This document shows positions 3,210 to 24,542 of a DNA stretch of 64,000 nt, piece after piece. The DNA lies in assembly GCF_058153355.1 (NCBI RefSeq), contig NZ_CM177019.1; one strand, written 5' to 3'. Each line of letters starts with the position of its first letter. The stretch's first letter is position 1. A model generated the notes under the pieces. That model had not been told where the DNA came from, searched no databases, and saw only the letters and a list, made by a program, of their open reading frames with translations. The position numbers were made by a program, and so were the translations under genes.

Positions 3210-4160
3210 TTATAGTTTGACGGCAAGAAGATCTTCCAGTTTGCGTTGATCAACGGCGAACAGGCGGATGCCTTCAGAGAGTTTTTCTACCGCCATTGCA
3301 TCCTGATTGTGCTCCCAACGGAACTCCGCTTCGCTCATCGGGGCTGGGCGTGGGAACGTCTGAGAAGGCGGGATTAATTTACGCACTACTGGAGAAACTT
3401 TTTCCTGCAGCTCCTTCAGCAAATTCGGCGCAATAGTCAGTCGATCACAGCCGGTTAAGGCGAGGATTTGTTCGGTGCGACGGAAGCTCGCGCCCATTAC
3501 AATGGTTTCGTAGTGGTGTTGCTTATAGTAGTCGTAGATATTGCGCACTGACTTAACGCCCGGATCTTCTTCCACCACATACGGGTCCATCGGCTTACGC
3601 GCCTGATACCAGTCATAAATACGCCCGACAAACGGCGAAATCAGAAAAACGCCTGCTTCTGCACAGGCCCGCGCCTGAGCAAAAGAAAACAGTAGCGTCA
3701 GGTTGCAGTTAATACCTTCTTTTTCCAGTTCTTCTGCCGCGCGAATTCCTTCCCAGGTTGAAGCCAGCTTGATCAGAATACGTGATTTCTCAACGCCTTG
3801 TTGCTGATACAAGTCCACCAAATGGCGCGCCTTCTCAATACTTTTTTCTTTATCAAAAGAGAGGCGTGCATCAACTTCTGTTGACACGCGACCGGGTACG
3901 ATTTTGAGAATTTCAGTACCGAAATTGACCGCCAGTTTGTCACATGCAGCGACCACCTGTTGTTCCTGGGTCTTGCCATTTTTTTTACCCCAGGCGATAG
4001 CATCGTCTATTAAATGCTCATATTGTGATAATCCGGCAGCCTTGAGTAACAGCGAAGGATTGGTGGTGGCATCCTGGGGATGATAATGGCGAATGGACTC
4101 AATATCGCCACTGTCTGCCACGACAGTGGTGAACTGTTTGATGCCGTCTAACTCGTTCAT
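3210..4160 (-). CDS. talA: transaldolase A
   Basis: 316-aa [26 protein letters not shown]...; lies upstream of tktB on the same strand. Confidence 0.93.
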
Positions 4161-4447
4161 AGGAAATACTCCTTGAAAAGTAAAGTGTTAGATGAGTGCG
4201 TTAATTCACACTTCTGAGAAATTTCGCTAAACGCATCAAAAAAGCATAGCAGACAGGCATGGTATTGCTGGATTAAGCAGGTAACATCAGTGTTATAGGA
4301 TTATTACCAAAACATTATGTTAATGGTGAGAGTTTGGACTTGCTCAAAGTCTGTAGGCTCCGGCAAGGTAATAATGTGCGCCACGTTGTGGGCAAGGCTG
4401 TTGCTCACACACTTTATTTGTGAACGTTACGTGAAAGGAACAACCAA

Positions 4448-6727
4448 ATGGATGACCAGTTAAAACAAAGTGCACTTGATTTCCATGAATTTCCAGTTCC
4501 AGGGAAAATCCAGGTTTCTCCAACCAAGCCTCTGGCAACGCAGCGCGATCTGGCGCTGGCCTACTCACCAGGCGTTGCCGCACCTTGTCTAGAAATCGAA
4601 AAAGACCCGTTAAAAGCCTACAAATATACCGCTCGTGGTAACCTGGTGGCGGTGATCTCTAACGGTACGGCGGTGCTGGGGTTAGGCAACATTGGCGCGC
4701 TGGCAGGCAAACCGGTGATGGAAGGCAAGGGCGTTCTGTTTAAGAAATTCGCCGGGATTGATGTATTTGACATTGAAGTTGATGAACTTGACCCGGACAA
4801 ATTTATTGAAGTCGTCGCTGCGCTCGAACCGACCTTCGGCGGCATCAACCTCGAAGACATTAAAGCGCCAGAATGTTTCTATATTGAACAGAAACTGCGC
4901 GAGCGGATGAATATTCCAGTATTCCACGACGATCAGCACGGCACGGCAATTATCAGCACTGCAGCCATCCTCAACGGATTGCGCGTGGTGGAGAAAAACA
5001 TCTCCGACGTGCGAATGGTGGTTTCCGGCGCGGGTGCAGCAGCAATTGCCTGTATGAACCTGCTGGTAGCGCTGGGGCTGCAAAAACATAACATCGTGGT
5101 TTGTGATTCAAAAGGCGTTATCTATCAGGGCCGTGAGCCAAATATGGCGGAAACCAAAGCCGCATATGCGGTGGTGGATGACGGCAAACGTACCCTCGAT
5201 GATGTAATTGAAGGCGCGGATATTTTCCTGGGCTGTTCCGGCCCGAAAGTGCTGACCCAGGAAATGGTTAAGAAAATGGCTCGTGCGCCGATGATCCTGG
5301 CGCTTGCAAACCCGGAACCAGAAATTCTGCCGCCGCTGGCGAAAGAAGTGCGTCCGGATGCCATCATCTGTACCGGCCGTTCCGACTACCCGAACCAGGT
5401 TAATAACGTGCTTTGCTTCCCGTTCATCTTCCGTGGCGCGTTGGACGTTGGTGCAACTGCCATCAACGAGGAAATGAAACTGGCGGCGGTACGCGCGATT
5501 GCAGAACTGGCCCATGCGGAACAGAGCGAAGTCGTTGCTTCGGCGTATGGCGATCAAGATTTGAGCTTCGGTCCGGAATACATCATTCCAAAACCGTTTG
5601 ATCCGCGTTTGATCGTTAAGATCGCTCCTGCGGTCGCTAAAGCGGCGATGGAGTCGGGCGTGGCGACGCGTCCGATTGCTGATTTCGACGTCTACATCGA
5701 CAAGCTGACTGAGTTCGTTTACAAAACCAACCTGTTTATGAAGCCGATTTTCTCCCAGGCCCGCAAAGCGCCGAAGCGCGTTGTTTTGCCGGAAGGGGAA
5801 GAGGCTCGCGTTCTGCATGCTACTCAGGAACTGGTGACGCTGGGACTGGCGAAACCGATCCTTATCGGTCGTCCGAACGTGATCGAAATGCGCATTCAAA
5901 AACTGGGCTTGCAGATCAAAGCGGGCGTTGATTTTGAGATCGTCAATAACGAATCCGATCCGCGTTTTAAAGAATACTGGACCGAATACTTCCAGATCAT
6001 GAAGCGCCGTGGTGTAACTCAGGAGCAGGCACAGCGGGCGCTGATCAGTAACCCGACAGTGATCGGCGCGATCATGGTTCAGCGTGGCGAAGCCGATGCA
6101 ATGATTTGCGGTACGGTGGGTGATTATCATGAACACTTCAGCGTGGTGAAAAATGTCTTTGGTTATCGCGATGGCGTTCACACCGCAGGTGCAATGAACG
6201 CGCTGCTATTGCCGAGTGGTAACACTTTTATTGCCGATACCTACGTCAATGACGAGCCAGACGCAGAAGAGCTGGCGGAGATCACCTTGATGGCGGCAGA
6301 AACTGTTCGTCGTTTTGGTATTGAGCCGCGTGTGGCTCTGTTGTCGCACTCCAACTTTGGTTCTTCTGACTGCCCGTCGTCGAGCAAAATGCGTCAAGCG
6401 CTGGAACTGGTCAGAGAGCGTGCGCCAGAACTGATGATTGATGGTGAAATGCACGGCGATGCAGCGCTGGTGGAAGCGATTCGCAGCGATCGTATGCCGG
6501 ACAGCCCTTTGAAAGGTTCCGCCAATATTCTGGTGATGCCGAACATGGAAGCTGCCCGTATTAGTTACAACTTACTGCGCGTTTCCAGCTCGGAAGGTGT
6601 GACTGTCGGTCCGGTGCTGATGGGTGTGGCGAAACCGGTTCACGTGTTAACACCAATCGCATCCGTACGTCGTATCGTCAACATGGTGGCGCTGGCCGTG
6701 GTTGAAGCGCAAACCCAACCGCTGTAA
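4448..6727 (+). CDS. maeB: NADP-dependent malic enzyme (malic enzyme domain fused to a PTA-like domain)
   Basis: 759-aa ORF; divergent from talA as in K-12. Confidence 0.93.
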
Positions 6728-6744
6728 TTCATTCTTAACTCTCA

Positions 6745-6777
6745 CGCTTACCCTGAATATTCAGGGTAAGCGGTTTT
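6745..6777 (+). terminator. rho-independent terminator after maeB
   Basis: cgcttaccctga-atat-tcagggtaagcg hairpin followed by gtttt. Confidence 0.6.
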
Positions 6778-6779
6778 AC

Positions 6780-7019
6780 TGTAATATATTAGTAAAGCTT
6801 ATTACTAAGTTTTCGAATAATAAAAAAAGCAGCATATAAACTATCTCGATATCATTTTATTTATATTCATGCGTTGCATATGAAAGTTTATGCATCACAG
6901 TAAATATCTCTCCATTCTTAGTGATCTACCTCACCTTTTAAACGCGCTTGCCGAATTTTGTTATTTACTCTGACGAAAAATTGTCACGATACACGAAAGT
7001 TTTTCACAGGCGGCGACTC
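6780..7019 (+). promoter_or_regulatory. AT-rich eut operon promoter region (expected EutR-dependent promoter)
   Basis: 240-bp AT-rich non-coding stretch directly upstream of eutS; no specific operator identified. Confidence 0.35.
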
Positions 7020-7355
7020 ATGGATAAAGAACGCATCATTCAGGAATTTGTGCCCGGCAAACAGGTCACACTGGCGCATCTCATCGCGCATCCCGGCGAG
7101 GAACTGGCGAAGAAAATCGGCGTTCCTGATGCGGGCGCAATCGGCATTATGACGCTAACTCCCGGCGAAACGGCGATGATCGCCGGTGATTTAGCACTAA
7201 AAGCCGCCGATGTGCATATCGGTTTTCTCGACCGTTTTAGCGGCGCGCTGGTGATTTATGGCTCGGTGGGTGCAGTAGAAGAAGCGTTATCACAAACCGT
7301 CAGTGGTTTAGGTCGCTTATTAAATTATACGCTTTGTGAAATGACCAAAAGTTAA
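7020..7355 (+). CDS. eutS: ethanolamine utilisation microcompartment shell protein EutS (BMC domain)
   Basis: [28 protein letters not shown]... from the internal Met of track ORF 6948..7355; 111 aa. Confidence 0.9.
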
Positions 7356-20205: not shown

Positions 20206-20706
20206 ATGATCAATGCACTGGGATTGCTGGAAGTGGACGGCATGGTCGCCGCGATAGATGCAGCTGATGCCATGCTCAAAGCAGCTAACGTTCGTCTGCT
20301 CAGTCACGAAGTGCTTGACCCTGGTCGCCTAACGCTGGTGGTGGAAGGCGATCTGGCGGCGTGTCGTGCGGCGCTGGACGCAGGTTGTGCTGCCGCGATG
20401 CGTACCGGGCGTGTCATCAGCCGTAAGGAGATCGGTCGGCCAGACGATGACACCCAGTGGCTGGTTACTGGCTTTAACCGCCAGCCGAAGCAACCCGTAA
20501 AGGAACCCGACGCGCCAGTTATCGTCGCGGAATCTGCTGACGAGTTGTTGGCGCTGTTAACATCAGTACGTCAGGGAATGACGGCAGGAGAAGTGGCTGC
20601 CCACTTTGGCTGGCCGCTGGAAAAAGCCAGAAATGCGCTCGAACAGCTCTTTTCTGCCGGGACGTTACGTAAACGCAGTAGTCGTTATCGTCTCAAGCCC
20701 CATTAA
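20206..20706 (+). CDS. eutK: EutK, BMC shell protein with C-terminal nucleic-acid-binding-like domain
   Basis: MINALGLLEVDGMVAAIDAADAMLKAANV...; 166 aa from internal Met. Confidence 0.88.
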   Translation: MINALGLLEVDGMVAAIDAADAMLKAANVRLLSHEVLDPGRLTLVVEGDLAACRAALDAGCAAAMRTGRVISRKEIGRPDDDTQWLVTGFNRQPKQPVKEPDAPVIVAESADELLALLTSVRQGMTAGEVAAHFGWPLEKARNALEQLFSAGTLRKRSSRYRLKPH

Positions 20707-20751
20707 CCTGTCGGAGGTGCCGGGTGTCCTACAACACCCGGCATTAACATC

Positions 20752-21804
20752 ATGAAAAAGACCCGTACAGCTAATTTGCACCATCTTTATCATGAACCCT
20801 TACCCGAAAACCTGAAGCTAACGCCGAAGGTCGAAGTGGATAATGTTCATCAACGGCAAACAACGGATGTCTATGAACATGCTTTGACGATTACCGCCTG
20901 GCAGCAGATTTACGATCAGCTGCATCCGGGCAAATTTCATGGTGAATTTACGGAAATTCTGCTCGATGATATTCAGGTTTTCCGTGAATACACGGGGCTG
21001 GCGCTGCGTCAGTCGTGCCTGGTCTGGCCGAATTCGTTCTGGTTTGGCATTCCGGCGACGCGCGGTGAGCAGGGATTTATCGGTTCGCAATGTCTGGGAA
21101 GCGCAGAAATAGCGACGCGCCCTGGTGGAACCGAGTTTGAATTAAGTACGCCGGACGATTACACGATCCTTGGCGTGGTGCTTTCTGAAGATGTCATCAC
21201 CCGGCAGGCTAACTTTTTGCATAACCCGGAAAGGGTGCTGCATATGTTACGTAACCAGTCGGCGCTGGAAGTGAAAGAGCAGCATAAAGCCGCGCTGTGG
21301 GGCTTTGTCCAACAGGCTCTGGCGACATTTTGCGAGAACCCGGAAAATCTCCATCAGCCTGCAGTGCGAAAAGTGCTGGGGGATAATTTGCTAATGGCGA
21401 TGGGGGCGATGCTGGAAGAAGCGCAGCCAATGGTGACGGTGGAAAGCATCAGTCATCAGAGTTACCGTCGGTTGCTTTCCCGCGCCCGTGAATATGTGCT
21501 GGAAAACATGTCCGAACCGGTGACGGTGCTGGACTTGTGTAATCAACTGCACGTCAGTCGCCGCACCTTGCAAAACGCATTTCACGCTATTTTGGGCATT
21601 GGCCCGAATGCGTGGCTGAAACGCATTCGCCTGAACGCCGTGCGCCGTGAACTGATTAGCCCGTGGTCGCAAAGTATGACGGTAAAAGACGCCGCCATGC
21701 AGTGGGGATTCTGGCATCTTGGGCAGTTTGCCACGGATTATCAGCAATTGTTTGCAGAAAAGCCTTCACTGACGCTGCATCAGCGGATGCAGGAACTGGA
21801 GTGA
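20752..21804 (+). CDS. eutR: EutR, AraC-family activator of the eut operon
   Basis: 350-aa ORF with C-terminal AraC-type HTH. Confidence 0.9.
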
Positions 21805-21880
21805 GGGTGAGGGCCGGATGAGGATGGTGTTTGATCCGGTCCATAGTGAAGTTACAAATTACGTTGAATTGCTATGTATT

Positions 21881-22198
21881 TTATTGCCCAACGGGATAGG
21901 CGATAAACAAACCGACAATTGTCAAAATACACGCCAGCAGGAATACCAACATACAATTTACGCGCTTTCGCGAAATTTTAAATAAATAGCAAAATAGTGT
22001 TGTTACCACGATCACTACCGGGATAGTCATAAAATTAATAACGATGAGTGCTATCAATCCAAAACTTGCTCCTCCACCGTGGGGAATAAAAATGTGTTCT
22101 TCAAAATAAACTTCTATAGCAAATGCCAGCACACATCCCAGAAAACTCATATCCAGATGAGGGTGCCATTTACTTTCTTTATGTGATGTGTCTGACAT
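21881..22198 (-). CDS. hypothetical small membrane protein (about 3 predicted TM helices)
   Basis: 105-aa ORF with hydrophobic segments (FLGCVLAFAI, LIALIVINFMTIPVVIVVTTLF, LVFLLACILTIVGLFIAY); AT-rich; co-directional with and 40 bp downstream of the 420-aa ORF. Confidence 0.55.
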   Translation of the reverse strand: MSDTSHKESKWHPHLDMSFLGCVLAFAIEVYFEEHIFIPHGGGASFGLIALIVINFMTIPVVIVVTTLFCYLFKISRKRVNCMLVFLLACILTIVGLFIAYPVGQ

Positions 22199-22238
22199 TC
22201 TTAAATGCTCCCGTGAGCAAACTGGCGCAAAATAATTT

Positions 22239-23501
22239 CTAAGATTGCTGATAAGACGTCGCTGTTGTCCGGCACTCCGGGCAGATAAACGCGTAAATTA
22301 TCCCTTCGCCGTATTGTTCAATATCGGCATAATCCAGTTGCGCAAGAAACATCATTGTGTGGGAACATTGCGGACAGAGAGGATATTCCGCGTCCTGAAT
22401 CCAGGTTGGATGCCCGCCAAGTTGCGAGAAAGAGACAGGTAAAAATGGGTCTGCGGCAAATAACGGTGACCTAAGGTTTCCCTGTCTCATGCTGTTTACA
22501 GGGAGTCGACGCCATTCCGATACATCATCCGGCAGCCAGGCAGGCGGGATATTTTTTGCAGACAAATGAGCGTTACCCTTTGAGTCCATGTAGCCGAAAA
22601 TGGTGCTGTAGGCGGTGCAACATTCGCAAGTCACGACGCGAAAACTGCCGTTATCGCTAAGACCCGTTGCCTTCAGGTCAACGTCGAAAAGATTTGTTAG
22701 TGGCAATGCGCAATTTGGACAGGTATCGTTGCGTTCATCAACAACACGCAAAGCTTCGCAAGACCCGGTGCTTTTCATCTCCAGATGAAAACATTGAGGA
22801 AAATAGAGATTACGCCTTTGATCTTCAGCGGTTAACTCCCAACCGGCCTCATGCGCATATTCTTCAGGCTCGATGTAAAGGGAGCTGCGCCACGGCGGTG
22901 GGCTATTGCGCCAGTGGGCAAAACGTTCAACGACAACGTCATCCCCAATCCATGCCAGACATTGCAGAATACAATTTCTGTTTTCTGCATCATCCTCAAC
23001 CCGTTCTAACAGCCTGTCGCGTACATCTGTGGGGGCGCGGTGGAAAGGCATATAAGAATCATTGTCCAAATCATCGTAAGAGATCCATTCTCTGAAATAG
23101 GCATTCAGATTCGCCTGGGTAAATGCCGCCAGACAAAGGCAAATCTCCTGAGCGAGCTTATATTCACCAGATGCAAAGCGTTCTGTGGCGTAATCAGCCA
23201 TCAGCTGCGCTTGATCGGTGGTCAGTTGTTGATACAGGGCATCTGTGGGAACGGGGCAGGGAGTCCAGTCGATTAACGCATCGAATTTCCGCGGTTGGTG
23301 AATTAATTTCAGCATGACAACCGGATCGCTTAACCCTGCAAACGCATTCACGATCTTTTTGTTTTTCTTGATATATTCGTCGTGCTCACGTTGCTGTTGG
23401 GCCTGCTCGCAGGGCATGCAGTATCCGTTAGTACGCGCTGCGGTTTCCGGAAGAATGGTTGATATACAAGCGGGGCTTTTACAGGGAATACGGTGAGTCA
23501 T
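22239..23501 (-). CDS. hypothetical Cys-rich protein: N-terminal zinc-ribbon-like motif and C-terminal DUF1963 (YwqG)-like region
   Basis: 420-aa ORF; four CxxC motifs (CMPC, CPNC, CPQC, CPEC); C-terminus GGHPTWIQ...CPQCSHTMMFLAQLD...YAFICPEC resembles the DUF1963/YwqG signature as remembered. To my recollection not present between eutR and hemF in K-12. Confidence 0.6.
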   Translation of the reverse strand: MTHRIPCKSPACISTILPETAARTNGYCMPCEQAQQQREHDEYIKKNKKIVNAFAGLSDPVVMLKLIHQPRKFDALIDWTPCPVPTDALYQQLTTDQAQLMADYATERFASGEYKLAQEICLCLAAFTQANLNAYFREWISYDDLDNDSYMPFHRAPTDVRDRLLERVEDDAENRNCILQCLAWIGDDVVVERFAHWRNSPPPWRSSLYIEPEEYAHEAGWELTAEDQRRNLYFPQCFHLEMKSTGSCEALRVVDERNDTCPNCALPLTNLFDVDLKATGLSDNGSFRVVTCECCTAYSTIFGYMDSKGNAHLSAKNIPPAWLPDDVSEWRRLPVNSMRQGNLRSPLFAADPFLPVSFSQLGGHPTWIQDAEYPLCPQCSHTMMFLAQLDYADIEQYGEGIIYAFICPECRTTATSYQQS

Positions 23502-23639
23502 AGAGGCGCTCCTTGCCTGAGGATATTAAGTCGAAAGAGATTATTATTAGATATTAGGGTGTCACTATGGCACACAAATTAAAACAGCATTAATTTTATG
23601 CCACCAACCGAGGGTTATTTTTCTTTTATTTTCATGATA

Positions 23640-24542
<903 letters not shown>

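Follow-up and report, generated by a model that had tools for sequence, protein, structure and literature searches.

The TYPP superfamily was defined by Burroughs and Aravind (2014) through a domain of two repeats, each with a GGxP motif, a conserved Gln and optional CxxC pairs, and its 'family two' was described as an uncharacterised α-helical domain, often preceded by a C4 zinc finger, that is joined to a TYPP domain (PMC4275035). For eukaryotic members, it is known that Tsr4 recognises the unstructured N-terminal region of uS5 and that substitutions in either TYPP repeat of PDCD2 abolish uS5 binding; the authors suggested that TYPP domains bind unstructured regions and that other clients are to be expected for the bacterial members (PMC7736825). 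Here, we analyse a gene pair located at positions 21,805 to 23,639 of a 64,000-nucleotide stretch of DNA (the window; contig NZ_CM177019.1 of assembly GCF_058153355.1), between the core genes eutR and hemF, which encodes a 420-residue protein with a TYPP domain (hereafter the large protein) and the small membrane protein YpfK. As a tentative first choice that falls somewhat short of probable, we propose that the large protein is an orphan immunity-type neutraliser, a TYPP binder that clamps a peptide, and that YpfK is its dispensable partner.

Architecture of the large protein and of YpfK

The large protein is predicted to be cytoplasmic, with a C4 zinc ribbon followed by a HEAT-like solenoid and then a compact TYPP β-domain of two repeats. 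The AlphaFold2 (AF2) model calculated with an alignment of homologues (predicted local distance difference test, pLDDT, 93.2; predicted template modelling score, pTM, 0.87) contains a small zinc ribbon (residues 1-31), a helical solenoid (residues 29-219) and a β-domain (residues 221-420), whose two halves align with each other in a profile-profile comparison (E 2.5e-4) with their CxxC pairs in register. Each repeat holds one putative zinc site, C261/C264/C292/C295 in the first and C376/C379/C407/C410 in the second. Because the two repeats, the GGxP motif, the conserved Gln and the CxxC pairs correspond to those laid down by Burroughs and Aravind (2014), the large protein is assigned to the TYPP superfamily (DUF1963/YwqG/PDCD2/Tsr4), and its architecture matches that of family two. 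GGHP (residues 362-365) and Q388 are present in repeat 2 only; repeat 1 carries a degenerate AGWE and an Asn instead of the Gln. The locus is laid out as follows in window coordinates.

20752..21804, plus strand: eutR, core gene on the left flank (open reading frame, annotation)
21805..21880, no strand assigned: spacer of 76 nt between the convergent eutR and ypfK-like genes, with a modest CCGGAU/AUCCGG hairpin at about 21812-21837 that lacks a T-run
21881..22198, minus strand: ypfK-like gene for a 105-residue inner-membrane protein (open reading frame, PF26378 of the orthologues, alignment)
22199..22238, minus strand: spacer of 40 nt between ypfK and the large gene, with a GGGAG Shine-Dalgarno-like sequence upstream of ypfK
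22239-22241, minus strand: stop codon of the large gene
22239-23501, minus strand: large gene, whole open reading frame, 420 amino acids
22242..22844, minus strand: codons 220-420 of the large gene, predicted compact two-repeat TYPP (DUF1963/YwqG-like) β-domain
22845..23408, minus strand: codons 32-219, predicted HEAT/ARM-like α-helical solenoid including a LAWIGD motif
23409..23501, minus strand: codons 1-31, predicted N-terminal C4 zinc ribbon (C7/C12/C28/C31)
23502..23639, minus strand: AT-rich spacer of 138 nt between the hemF stop and the start of the large gene, with an AAGGAG Shine-Dalgarno sequence
23640..24539, minus strand: hemF, core gene on the right flank, co-directional with the pair (open reading frame, annotation)

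The large protein contains 20 Cys residues, 12 of which, arranged in five CxxC motifs and one Cx4C motif, would make three four-Cys sites. A first-pass annotation of this DNA had counted four CxxC motifs and considered them probably zinc-binding; its count needs correction, and its suggestion of zinc agrees with the predicted sites. In an alignment of 28 diverse homologues from several phyla, 11 of the 12 Cys residues are invariant (C7, C12, C28, C31, C261, C264, C292, C295, C376, C379 and C407) and C410 nearly so. The same alignment holds invariant G362, G363, P365, W367, Q369, D370 and Q388, together with Q418 in a conserved C-terminal YQQ[ST]. The Pfam search and the structure prediction proposed in the first-pass annotation yielded DUF1963 similarity and a confident AF2 model, and the likeness of the C-terminus to DUF1963/YwqG seen there holds (residues 359-406, E 5.8e-5) but is partial, covering positions 1-51 of the 216 in the Pfam model. 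Alignment by hhalign to canonical DUF1963 spans residues 348-406 (Prob 82-88%, about 58-94 columns), and a profile search of the PDB sequences did not recover 1PV5.

One could read the striking invariance of W367, Q369, D370, Q388 and Q418, and the 12 Cys residues of zinc type, as signs of a catalytic TYPP domain, for instance one that modifies peptides via its conserved glutamines, or of a protein that handles zinc through its three Cys4 sites. Catalysis was raised by Burroughs and Aravind as a "more radical interpretation", for which enzymological precedent is lacking according to the same authors (PMC4275035). Structural comparison turned up no enzyme that resembles the large protein, the CxxC spacing of the protein is of the structural zinc-ribbon type, and no zinc-homeostasis genes were seen in the neighbourhood; we therefore hold either activity to be improbable. 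Scans with Pfam and NCBIfam disclosed no nuclease, NTPase or other effector domain in the large protein, and neither protein gave an informative match to NCBIfam or PADLOC models.

Homologues that cover the full length of about 420 residues come most of all from Paenibacillus, and also from Enterobacteriaceae, Chitinimonas, Planctomycetota, Verrucomicrobiota and Clostridium. Among 1.84 billion representative proteins, a profile search collected 539 clusters (counted at 50% identity) at E <= 1e-30 and 1,212 at E <= 1e-10. Homologues without the N-terminal zinc ribbon exist. Some variants (among P0104, of 667 residues, and P0203-P0281, of about 500 residues) carry extra N-terminal modules: one has DUF2625, one has a SUKH-like domain (E 3e-4), and in many the solenoid is probably lengthened by about 160 further helical residues.

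The 105-residue product of the second gene is YpfK, a three-helix inner-membrane protein of the Enterobacteriaceae, to which it is restricted in our profile search (Escherichia, Salmonella, Kluyvera and a Klebsiella sp.). Hydropathy and an AF2 model place the predicted helices at residues 14-32, 44-73 and 79-104, in keeping with the small membrane partner with three transmembrane segments proposed in the first-pass annotation. Residue E29, an IFIPxGGG loop, N55 and a C-terminal LLAC..G.FI.YP.G are invariant, E29 and N55 being conserved polar residues inside membrane helices. The direct Pfam scan of the window protein gave no PF26378 (YpfK) match; this family is precomputed on proteins 88-98% identical to it, and on the orthologues from Kluyvera and Salmonella. 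All YpfK copies whose locus we examined lie at hemF. A literature search returned nothing for 'ypfK', STM2452/STM2453 or a hemF/eutR hotspot.

The immunity proteins against pore-forming colicins are about 105-115 residues long and have about three membrane helices. YpfK is similar in size and helix number, a likeness that we take as a lead; it differs in that it has no sequence similarity to them (Pfam and NCBIfam searches were empty) and in that no colicin or toxin gene lies nearby.

Both open reading frames are real genes, as indicated by the full-length homologues of the large protein in several phyla and by ratios of non-synonymous to synonymous substitution rates (dN/dS) within E. coli of 0.23-0.33 (large gene) and 0.24 (small gene). 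In comparisons with Salmonella, Kluyvera and Yokenella, the ratio was 0.12-0.26 over both genes wherever the synonymous rate (dS) could be estimated; for hemF and eutR, it was 0.03-0.07 in most comparisons. Judged by these ratios, both genes are under purifying selection that is 5-10 times more relaxed than that acting on hemF and eutR.

Genomic neighbourhoods and the proposed role of the pair

We inspected 80 loci from GTDB species representatives and scored toxin and immunity genes within 6 kb of the homologue of the large gene. Polymorphic-toxin or immunity genes (including SuFu, SUKH, canonical DUF1963, DUF6138, WXG100-EndoU) were found in 22 of them. In about 12 loci of Bacillales, belonging to the four genera Paenibacillus, Lysinibacillus, Sporosarcina and Fontibacillus, the homologue stands in a tight same-strand array in the order SuFu, a 223-residue protein lacking a Pfam match, the TYPP gene, DUF6138 and canonical DUF1963, with SUKH on the opposite strand. 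Spacings in these arrays go down to 3-61 bp, or the genes overlap by 13-19 bp, and in 10 loci, a WXG100-EndoU toxin gene follows 0.2-5 kb downstream of the TYPP gene. Such assemblies are what Zhang et al. (2012) termed 'heterogeneous polyimmunity loci', and HEAT-repeat immunity proteins are likewise listed in their work (PMC3482391).

Among the arrays, those of loci L047, L035, L041 and L030 (within about 5 kb of position 6001-7290) encode a DUF6138 protein of about 515 residues; DUF6138 and two or three unannotated array families are candidate immunity-type proteins in their own right. No neighbour gene is universally conserved among the 80 loci. GNAT, permease and AlaX-like genes are the most frequent neighbours, which reflects Paenibacillus synteny.

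The position of distant homologues in polyimmunity arrays (22 of 80 loci) leads us to favour an immunity-type role for the large protein, and the precedent of PDCD2/Tsr4 (PMC7736825) leads us to infer a non-enzymatic mode of action through the binding of an extended peptide. We propose that the large protein would clamp an unstructured segment of a partner protein in a pocket of the TYPP domain lined by the invariant GGHP, WIQD, Q388 and C-terminal YQQ, that the solenoid would offer a second contact surface, and that the zinc sites would be structural. The partner would be the incoming domain of a polymorphic toxin, which the large protein would neutralise as an orphan immunity-type protein, and the competitors that a lineage meets would set whether the gene is retained or lost. 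YpfK may be a separate, dispensable partner at the locus that acts in the membrane, not an obligate subunit. We also count in favour of immunity the Tli3-family immunity gene of the type VI secretion system (T6SS) and the Sel1 genes next to the locus in three E. coli strains, the SUKH fusion in one long variant, the dN/dS values of 5-10 times those of hemF/eutR, the patchy retention of the gene and its decay in Salmonella.

Several points weigh against this proposal. The rate of 22 in 80 has no matched control, and since many of the loci share ancestry, the number of independent events lies far below 22; the other 58 loci have no recognisable conflict genes. Neither the window nor any of the enterobacterial loci that we examined has a toxin, secretion-system, Rhs or contact-dependent inhibition (CDI) gene next to the pair, and the housekeeping neighbourhood amiA-hemF is kept across genera. 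The pocket is a candidate put forward from residue conservation and the published description of YwqG, and its residues are invariant from Proteobacteria to Firmicutes, which is easier to reconcile with a single conserved ligand than with a variety of toxins. The literature we searched holds no experiment on any bacterial TYPP protein. It likewise does not document the link between DUF1963 and toxin immunity to which the first-pass annotation had appealed; here, this link comes only from the genomic context of distant homologues.

The conserved pocket, the stable chromosomal position and the many loci lacking conflict genes would sit well with a different explanation, by which the large protein would serve an endogenous client as its dedicated chaperone or assembly adaptor, much as PDCD2/Tsr4 serve uS5. 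In Enterobacteriaceae, YpfK is a conceivable client, with its cytoplasmic N-terminal tail KWHPHLD as one possible target, or else the client might be a protein that YpfK brings to the membrane. The sole experimentally characterised TYPP proteins are indeed client-specific chaperones (PMC7736825), a function that had been predicted (PMC4275035), and the large gene and ypfK adjoin in four genera (Escherichia, Kluyvera, Salmonella and a Klebsiella sp.) despite a swap of their order in Salmonella. This persistent adjacency suggests some functional link between the two. Each gene nevertheless occurs without the other. The large gene stands without ypfK in Yokenella, Superficieibacter, Chitinimonas, Paenibacillus and three E. 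coli strains, and this is the rule outside the Enterobacteriaceae; in Salmonella, an intact YpfK of 109 residues, the representative of a 308-member cluster, is encoded beside a remnant of the large gene (about residues 290-412). When the large protein and YpfK were modelled by AF2 as a linker fusion with a paired alignment, a weak test, there was no sign of docking: pTM was 0.71 compared with 0.87 for the large protein alone, and the N-terminal tail of YpfK had a pLDDT below 50. The loss of the gene from 99.5% of E. coli and its elevated dN/dS are also unlike a housekeeping chaperone. Taken together, we judge a chaperone for an endogenous client to be possible and still rather unlikely.

Since each gene is found in nature without the other, the two are not mutually dependent, which argues strongly against an obligate complex and against a toxin-antitoxin pair. 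The self-contained two-gene module envisaged in the first-pass annotation is thus not borne out, given that most taxa and three E. coli strains have the large gene only and that, in Salmonella, YpfK stays intact beside a decayed large gene. An addiction module, with YpfK as a membrane-damaging toxin and the TYPP protein as its antidote, or the reverse, would superficially suit a small hydrophobic protein encoded beside a larger soluble binder, co-directionally and 40 nt apart, and a patchy distribution. It is at odds with the natural occurrence of the 308-member Salmonella YpfK cluster and of lone large genes outside the Enterobacteriaceae, with a stable syntenic locus free of plasmid and phage copies, and with a YpfK that is under purifying selection and keeps conserved polar membrane residues; we give it hardly any credence. 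YpfK is also unrelated to a 99-residue protein with three transmembrane helices encoded near Paenibacillus homologues.

If the immunity-type role that we prefer were extended to the whole family, HEAT-TYPP proteins would form a widespread class of immunity or toxin-neutralising proteins of polymorphic-toxin systems that has so far escaped notice and whose members clamp an unstructured toxin segment in the TYPP pocket. PDCD2/Tsr4 would have descended from this bacterial conflict scaffold, and the large protein and YpfK would constitute a two-layer orphan-immunity islet at hemF, one layer in the cytoplasm and one in the membrane, which lineages would retain or shed depending on the competitors they meet. 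We regard this wider scenario as unlikely.

The hemF locus in Enterobacteriaceae and the variable eutR-hemF junction

The pair is an old chromosomal locus of the Enterobacteriaceae situated 3' of hemF, which has been deleted in most E. coli. This conclusion draws on synteny with hemF across genera, on dS values that match those of the flanking genes, and on the lack of flanking repeats and of plasmid or phage copies. Five other genera have the large gene directly 3' of amiA-hemF, which makes six enterobacterial genera when Escherichia is counted. The gene order is hemF, 423-residue gene, ypfK and maeB in Kluyvera, hemF, 423-residue gene and maeB in Yokenella, and hemF, ypfK and 425-residue gene in Salmonella Paratyphi A, where the order of the pair is swapped; Superficieibacter and the uncultured Enterobacteriaceae UBA3516 likewise carry the large gene beside hemF. 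Between the window and strain E2348/69, dS amounts to 0.22 for the large gene, 0.31 for hemF and 0.27 for eutR. No direct or inverted repeats flank the segment, and a search of 72,556 plasmids and 50,697 phage genomes returned no copies. On these grounds we reject an origin from a mobile element, and the first-pass description of the segment as an insert between eutR and hemF had the polarity of the event wrong.

In Salmonella, S. Paratyphi A retains the full 425-residue gene, and other lineages look like cases of ongoing decay: the large-gene remnant (about residues 290-412) of Salmonella enterica lies between ypfK and eutR at 3830-4279 of locus L098 and 6294-6743 of locus L013, and the YpfK protein of L013 has an in-frame deletion of 12 residues in helix 2.

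In the K-12-derived strain J53, the gap between eutR and hemF measures 5 bp, and a megablast search with the 1,835-bp segment found it in 28 of 5,426 complete E. coli genomes, 25 with both genes and three with the large gene only. The pair is thus missing in K-12, as it is in about 99.5% of the complete E. coli genomes, so that its accessory status, surmised in the first-pass annotation, is confirmed, and the comparison of the eutR-hemF region proposed there does not make these genes part of the E. coli core. An identical insert is common to nine complete genomes, and a 3.5-kb tract (window 20305..23804) is identical in another strain. The few E. coli strains that keep the locus exchange the pair by homologous recombination through eutR and hemF. 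A YpfK allele reported from E. fergusonii (P0121) is 98% identical to that of the window, a far closer match than the overall divergence of the two species would lead one to expect, which suggests that the locus has been exchanged between them. The last eutR codons, beside the indel, vary between haplotypes: EutR ends in ...QELE in the window (21793-21804) and strain WL297, and in ...REWG in K-12 and E2348/69.

What occupies the eutR-hemF junction differs by strain, being the pair described here, an SNF2 helicase gene, or Tli3 and Sel1 genes. In strains of the E2348/69 type, a ZorD/DpdE-like SNF2 helicase gene directly adjoins the pair and is accompanied by a gene for a hypothetical protein of 224 residues. 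At this junction (locus L095 17313-21430; NC_011601.1 2707312-2711429), the helicase has 1,149 residues, DUF3670 and Helicase_C domains and matches to the PADLOC ZorD/DpdE models (E 2.5e-124), the 224-residue protein has no Pfam match, and the helicase resembles a lone defence-type helicase in a variable spot. Three E. coli strains have ypfK replaced by two Sel1-repeat genes, a Tli3-family T6SS immunity gene and a gene for a 222-residue protein (L004 647-2940; L096 and L097), a set which resembles an orphan-immunity cassette; this 222-residue protein is 56% identical to the 224-residue hypothetical protein of E2348/69. Homology of the 222/224-residue proteins to the Paenibacillus neighbours c12, c14, c29 and DUF6138 was sought, and none was found.

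The adjoining helicase gene and the variation of the junction between strains might make the pair an anti-phage defence system, or a component of one, in an eutR-hemF defence hotspot. Neither protein is matched by a PADLOC model, the helicase is missing from the window and 16 other carriers, the large protein is devoid of a nuclease, NTPase or other effector domain, and the position is conserved across genera, unlike that of mobile defence islands; a defence function is consequently very unlikely.

Within the window, the first-pass annotation had correctly recognised two co-directional minus-strand open reading frames, of 420 and 105 codons, in about 1.8 kb, and an AT-rich region at about 21810-22230. 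The two genes fill the 1.8 kb from the eutR stop (21804) to the hemF stop (23640). The whole segment has a guanine-plus-cytosine content of 0.46 (small gene, 0.384; large gene, 0.495), compared with 0.521 for the window, and the minimum over 300 nt (0.377) falls on the small gene at 21900-22199. Each gene is preceded by a Shine-Dalgarno-like sequence, and the large gene and ypfK are probably co-transcribed. The hairpin 3' of ypfK has a minimum free energy of -10.7 kcal/mol that is not significant (z -1.6). No terminator consensus was found in the spacers, no sigma-70 consensus in the 138-nt spacer (23502..23639) upstream of the large gene, and no Rfam match in the spacers at E <= 1; with these results, we discard a known RNA or regulatory element there.

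Significance and comparison with described systems

The family to which the large protein belongs goes back to a computational definition in 2014, and its members routinely receive the annotation DUF1963; YpfK already is a Pfam family. The locus is not a recent insertion, nor does it represent a new kind of system. The Prokaryotic Genome Annotation Pipeline (PGAP) already labels the large gene 'DUF1963 domain-containing protein' and the small one 'hypothetical protein'. The interest of the locus lies in the size of the bacterial TYPP (DUF1963/YwqG) superfamily, of which this sub-family alone comprises more than 500 clusters at 50% identity, and in the place of bacterial TYPP proteins at the root of PDCD2/Tsr4, the essential chaperones of a eukaryotic ribosomal protein. 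With its presence in E2348/69, a model strain of enteropathogenic E. coli, and its natural absence from K-12, the pair provides a tractable entry to the function of bacterial TYPP proteins. Should the immunity-type role prove true, the repertoire of polymorphic-toxin immunity would gain a new scaffold and the patchy retention of the gene would be explained; should the large protein be a chaperone, its client would be the first identified for a bacterial TYPP protein. In practical terms, genome annotators should expect variable content at the eutR-hemF junction.

The immunity proteins of polymorphic toxins, such as SUKH, SuFu and Imm-HEAT, share with the large protein that they are non-catalytic binding scaffolds of patchy distribution that are often orphaned (PMC3113570, PMC3482391), and homologues of the window gene stand with immunity proteins of polyimmunity loci in the Bacillales arrays and, in three E. 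coli strains, next to a gene of the Tli3 family. Different are the lack of a cognate toxin at the window locus, the lack of a published assignment of TYPP proteins to immunity, and a conservation across phyla that goes far beyond that of the usual toxin-specific immunity proteins.

From the canonical DUF1963 protein, YwqG of B. subtilis (PDB 1PV5), the large protein is distant, with an identity of 12% and a match limited to model positions 1-51 of 216. YwqG has neither a zinc ribbon nor a solenoid nor Cys4 sites, and its conserved motif lies in the first repeat, whereas that of the window protein lies in the C-terminal one. With PDCD2, Tsr4 and PDCD2L, the large protein has in common the two-repeat TYPP domain with GGxP, CxxC and Gln, for which these proteins set the precedent of binding an unstructured client segment. 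PDCD2 differs in the MYND finger inserted between its repeats, and the client of PDCD2/Tsr4 is a eukaryote-specific extension of uS5 that is missing in bacteria; at the window locus, no evidence of a ribosomal link was seen.

The closest likeness is to TYPP family two, with which the large protein shares the succession of N-terminal C4 zinc finger, α-helical domain and TYPP domain, the last with GGxP, Gln and CxxC pairs. It differs in that its helical domain is resolved in the model as HEAT/ARM-like, and in a TYPP domain that is unusually compact, about 200 residues, and keeps the sequence signature in repeat 2 only. Proteins of Campylobacter showae and C. concisus, of the kind that served as seeds in the 2014 study (PMC4275035), match the full-length model.

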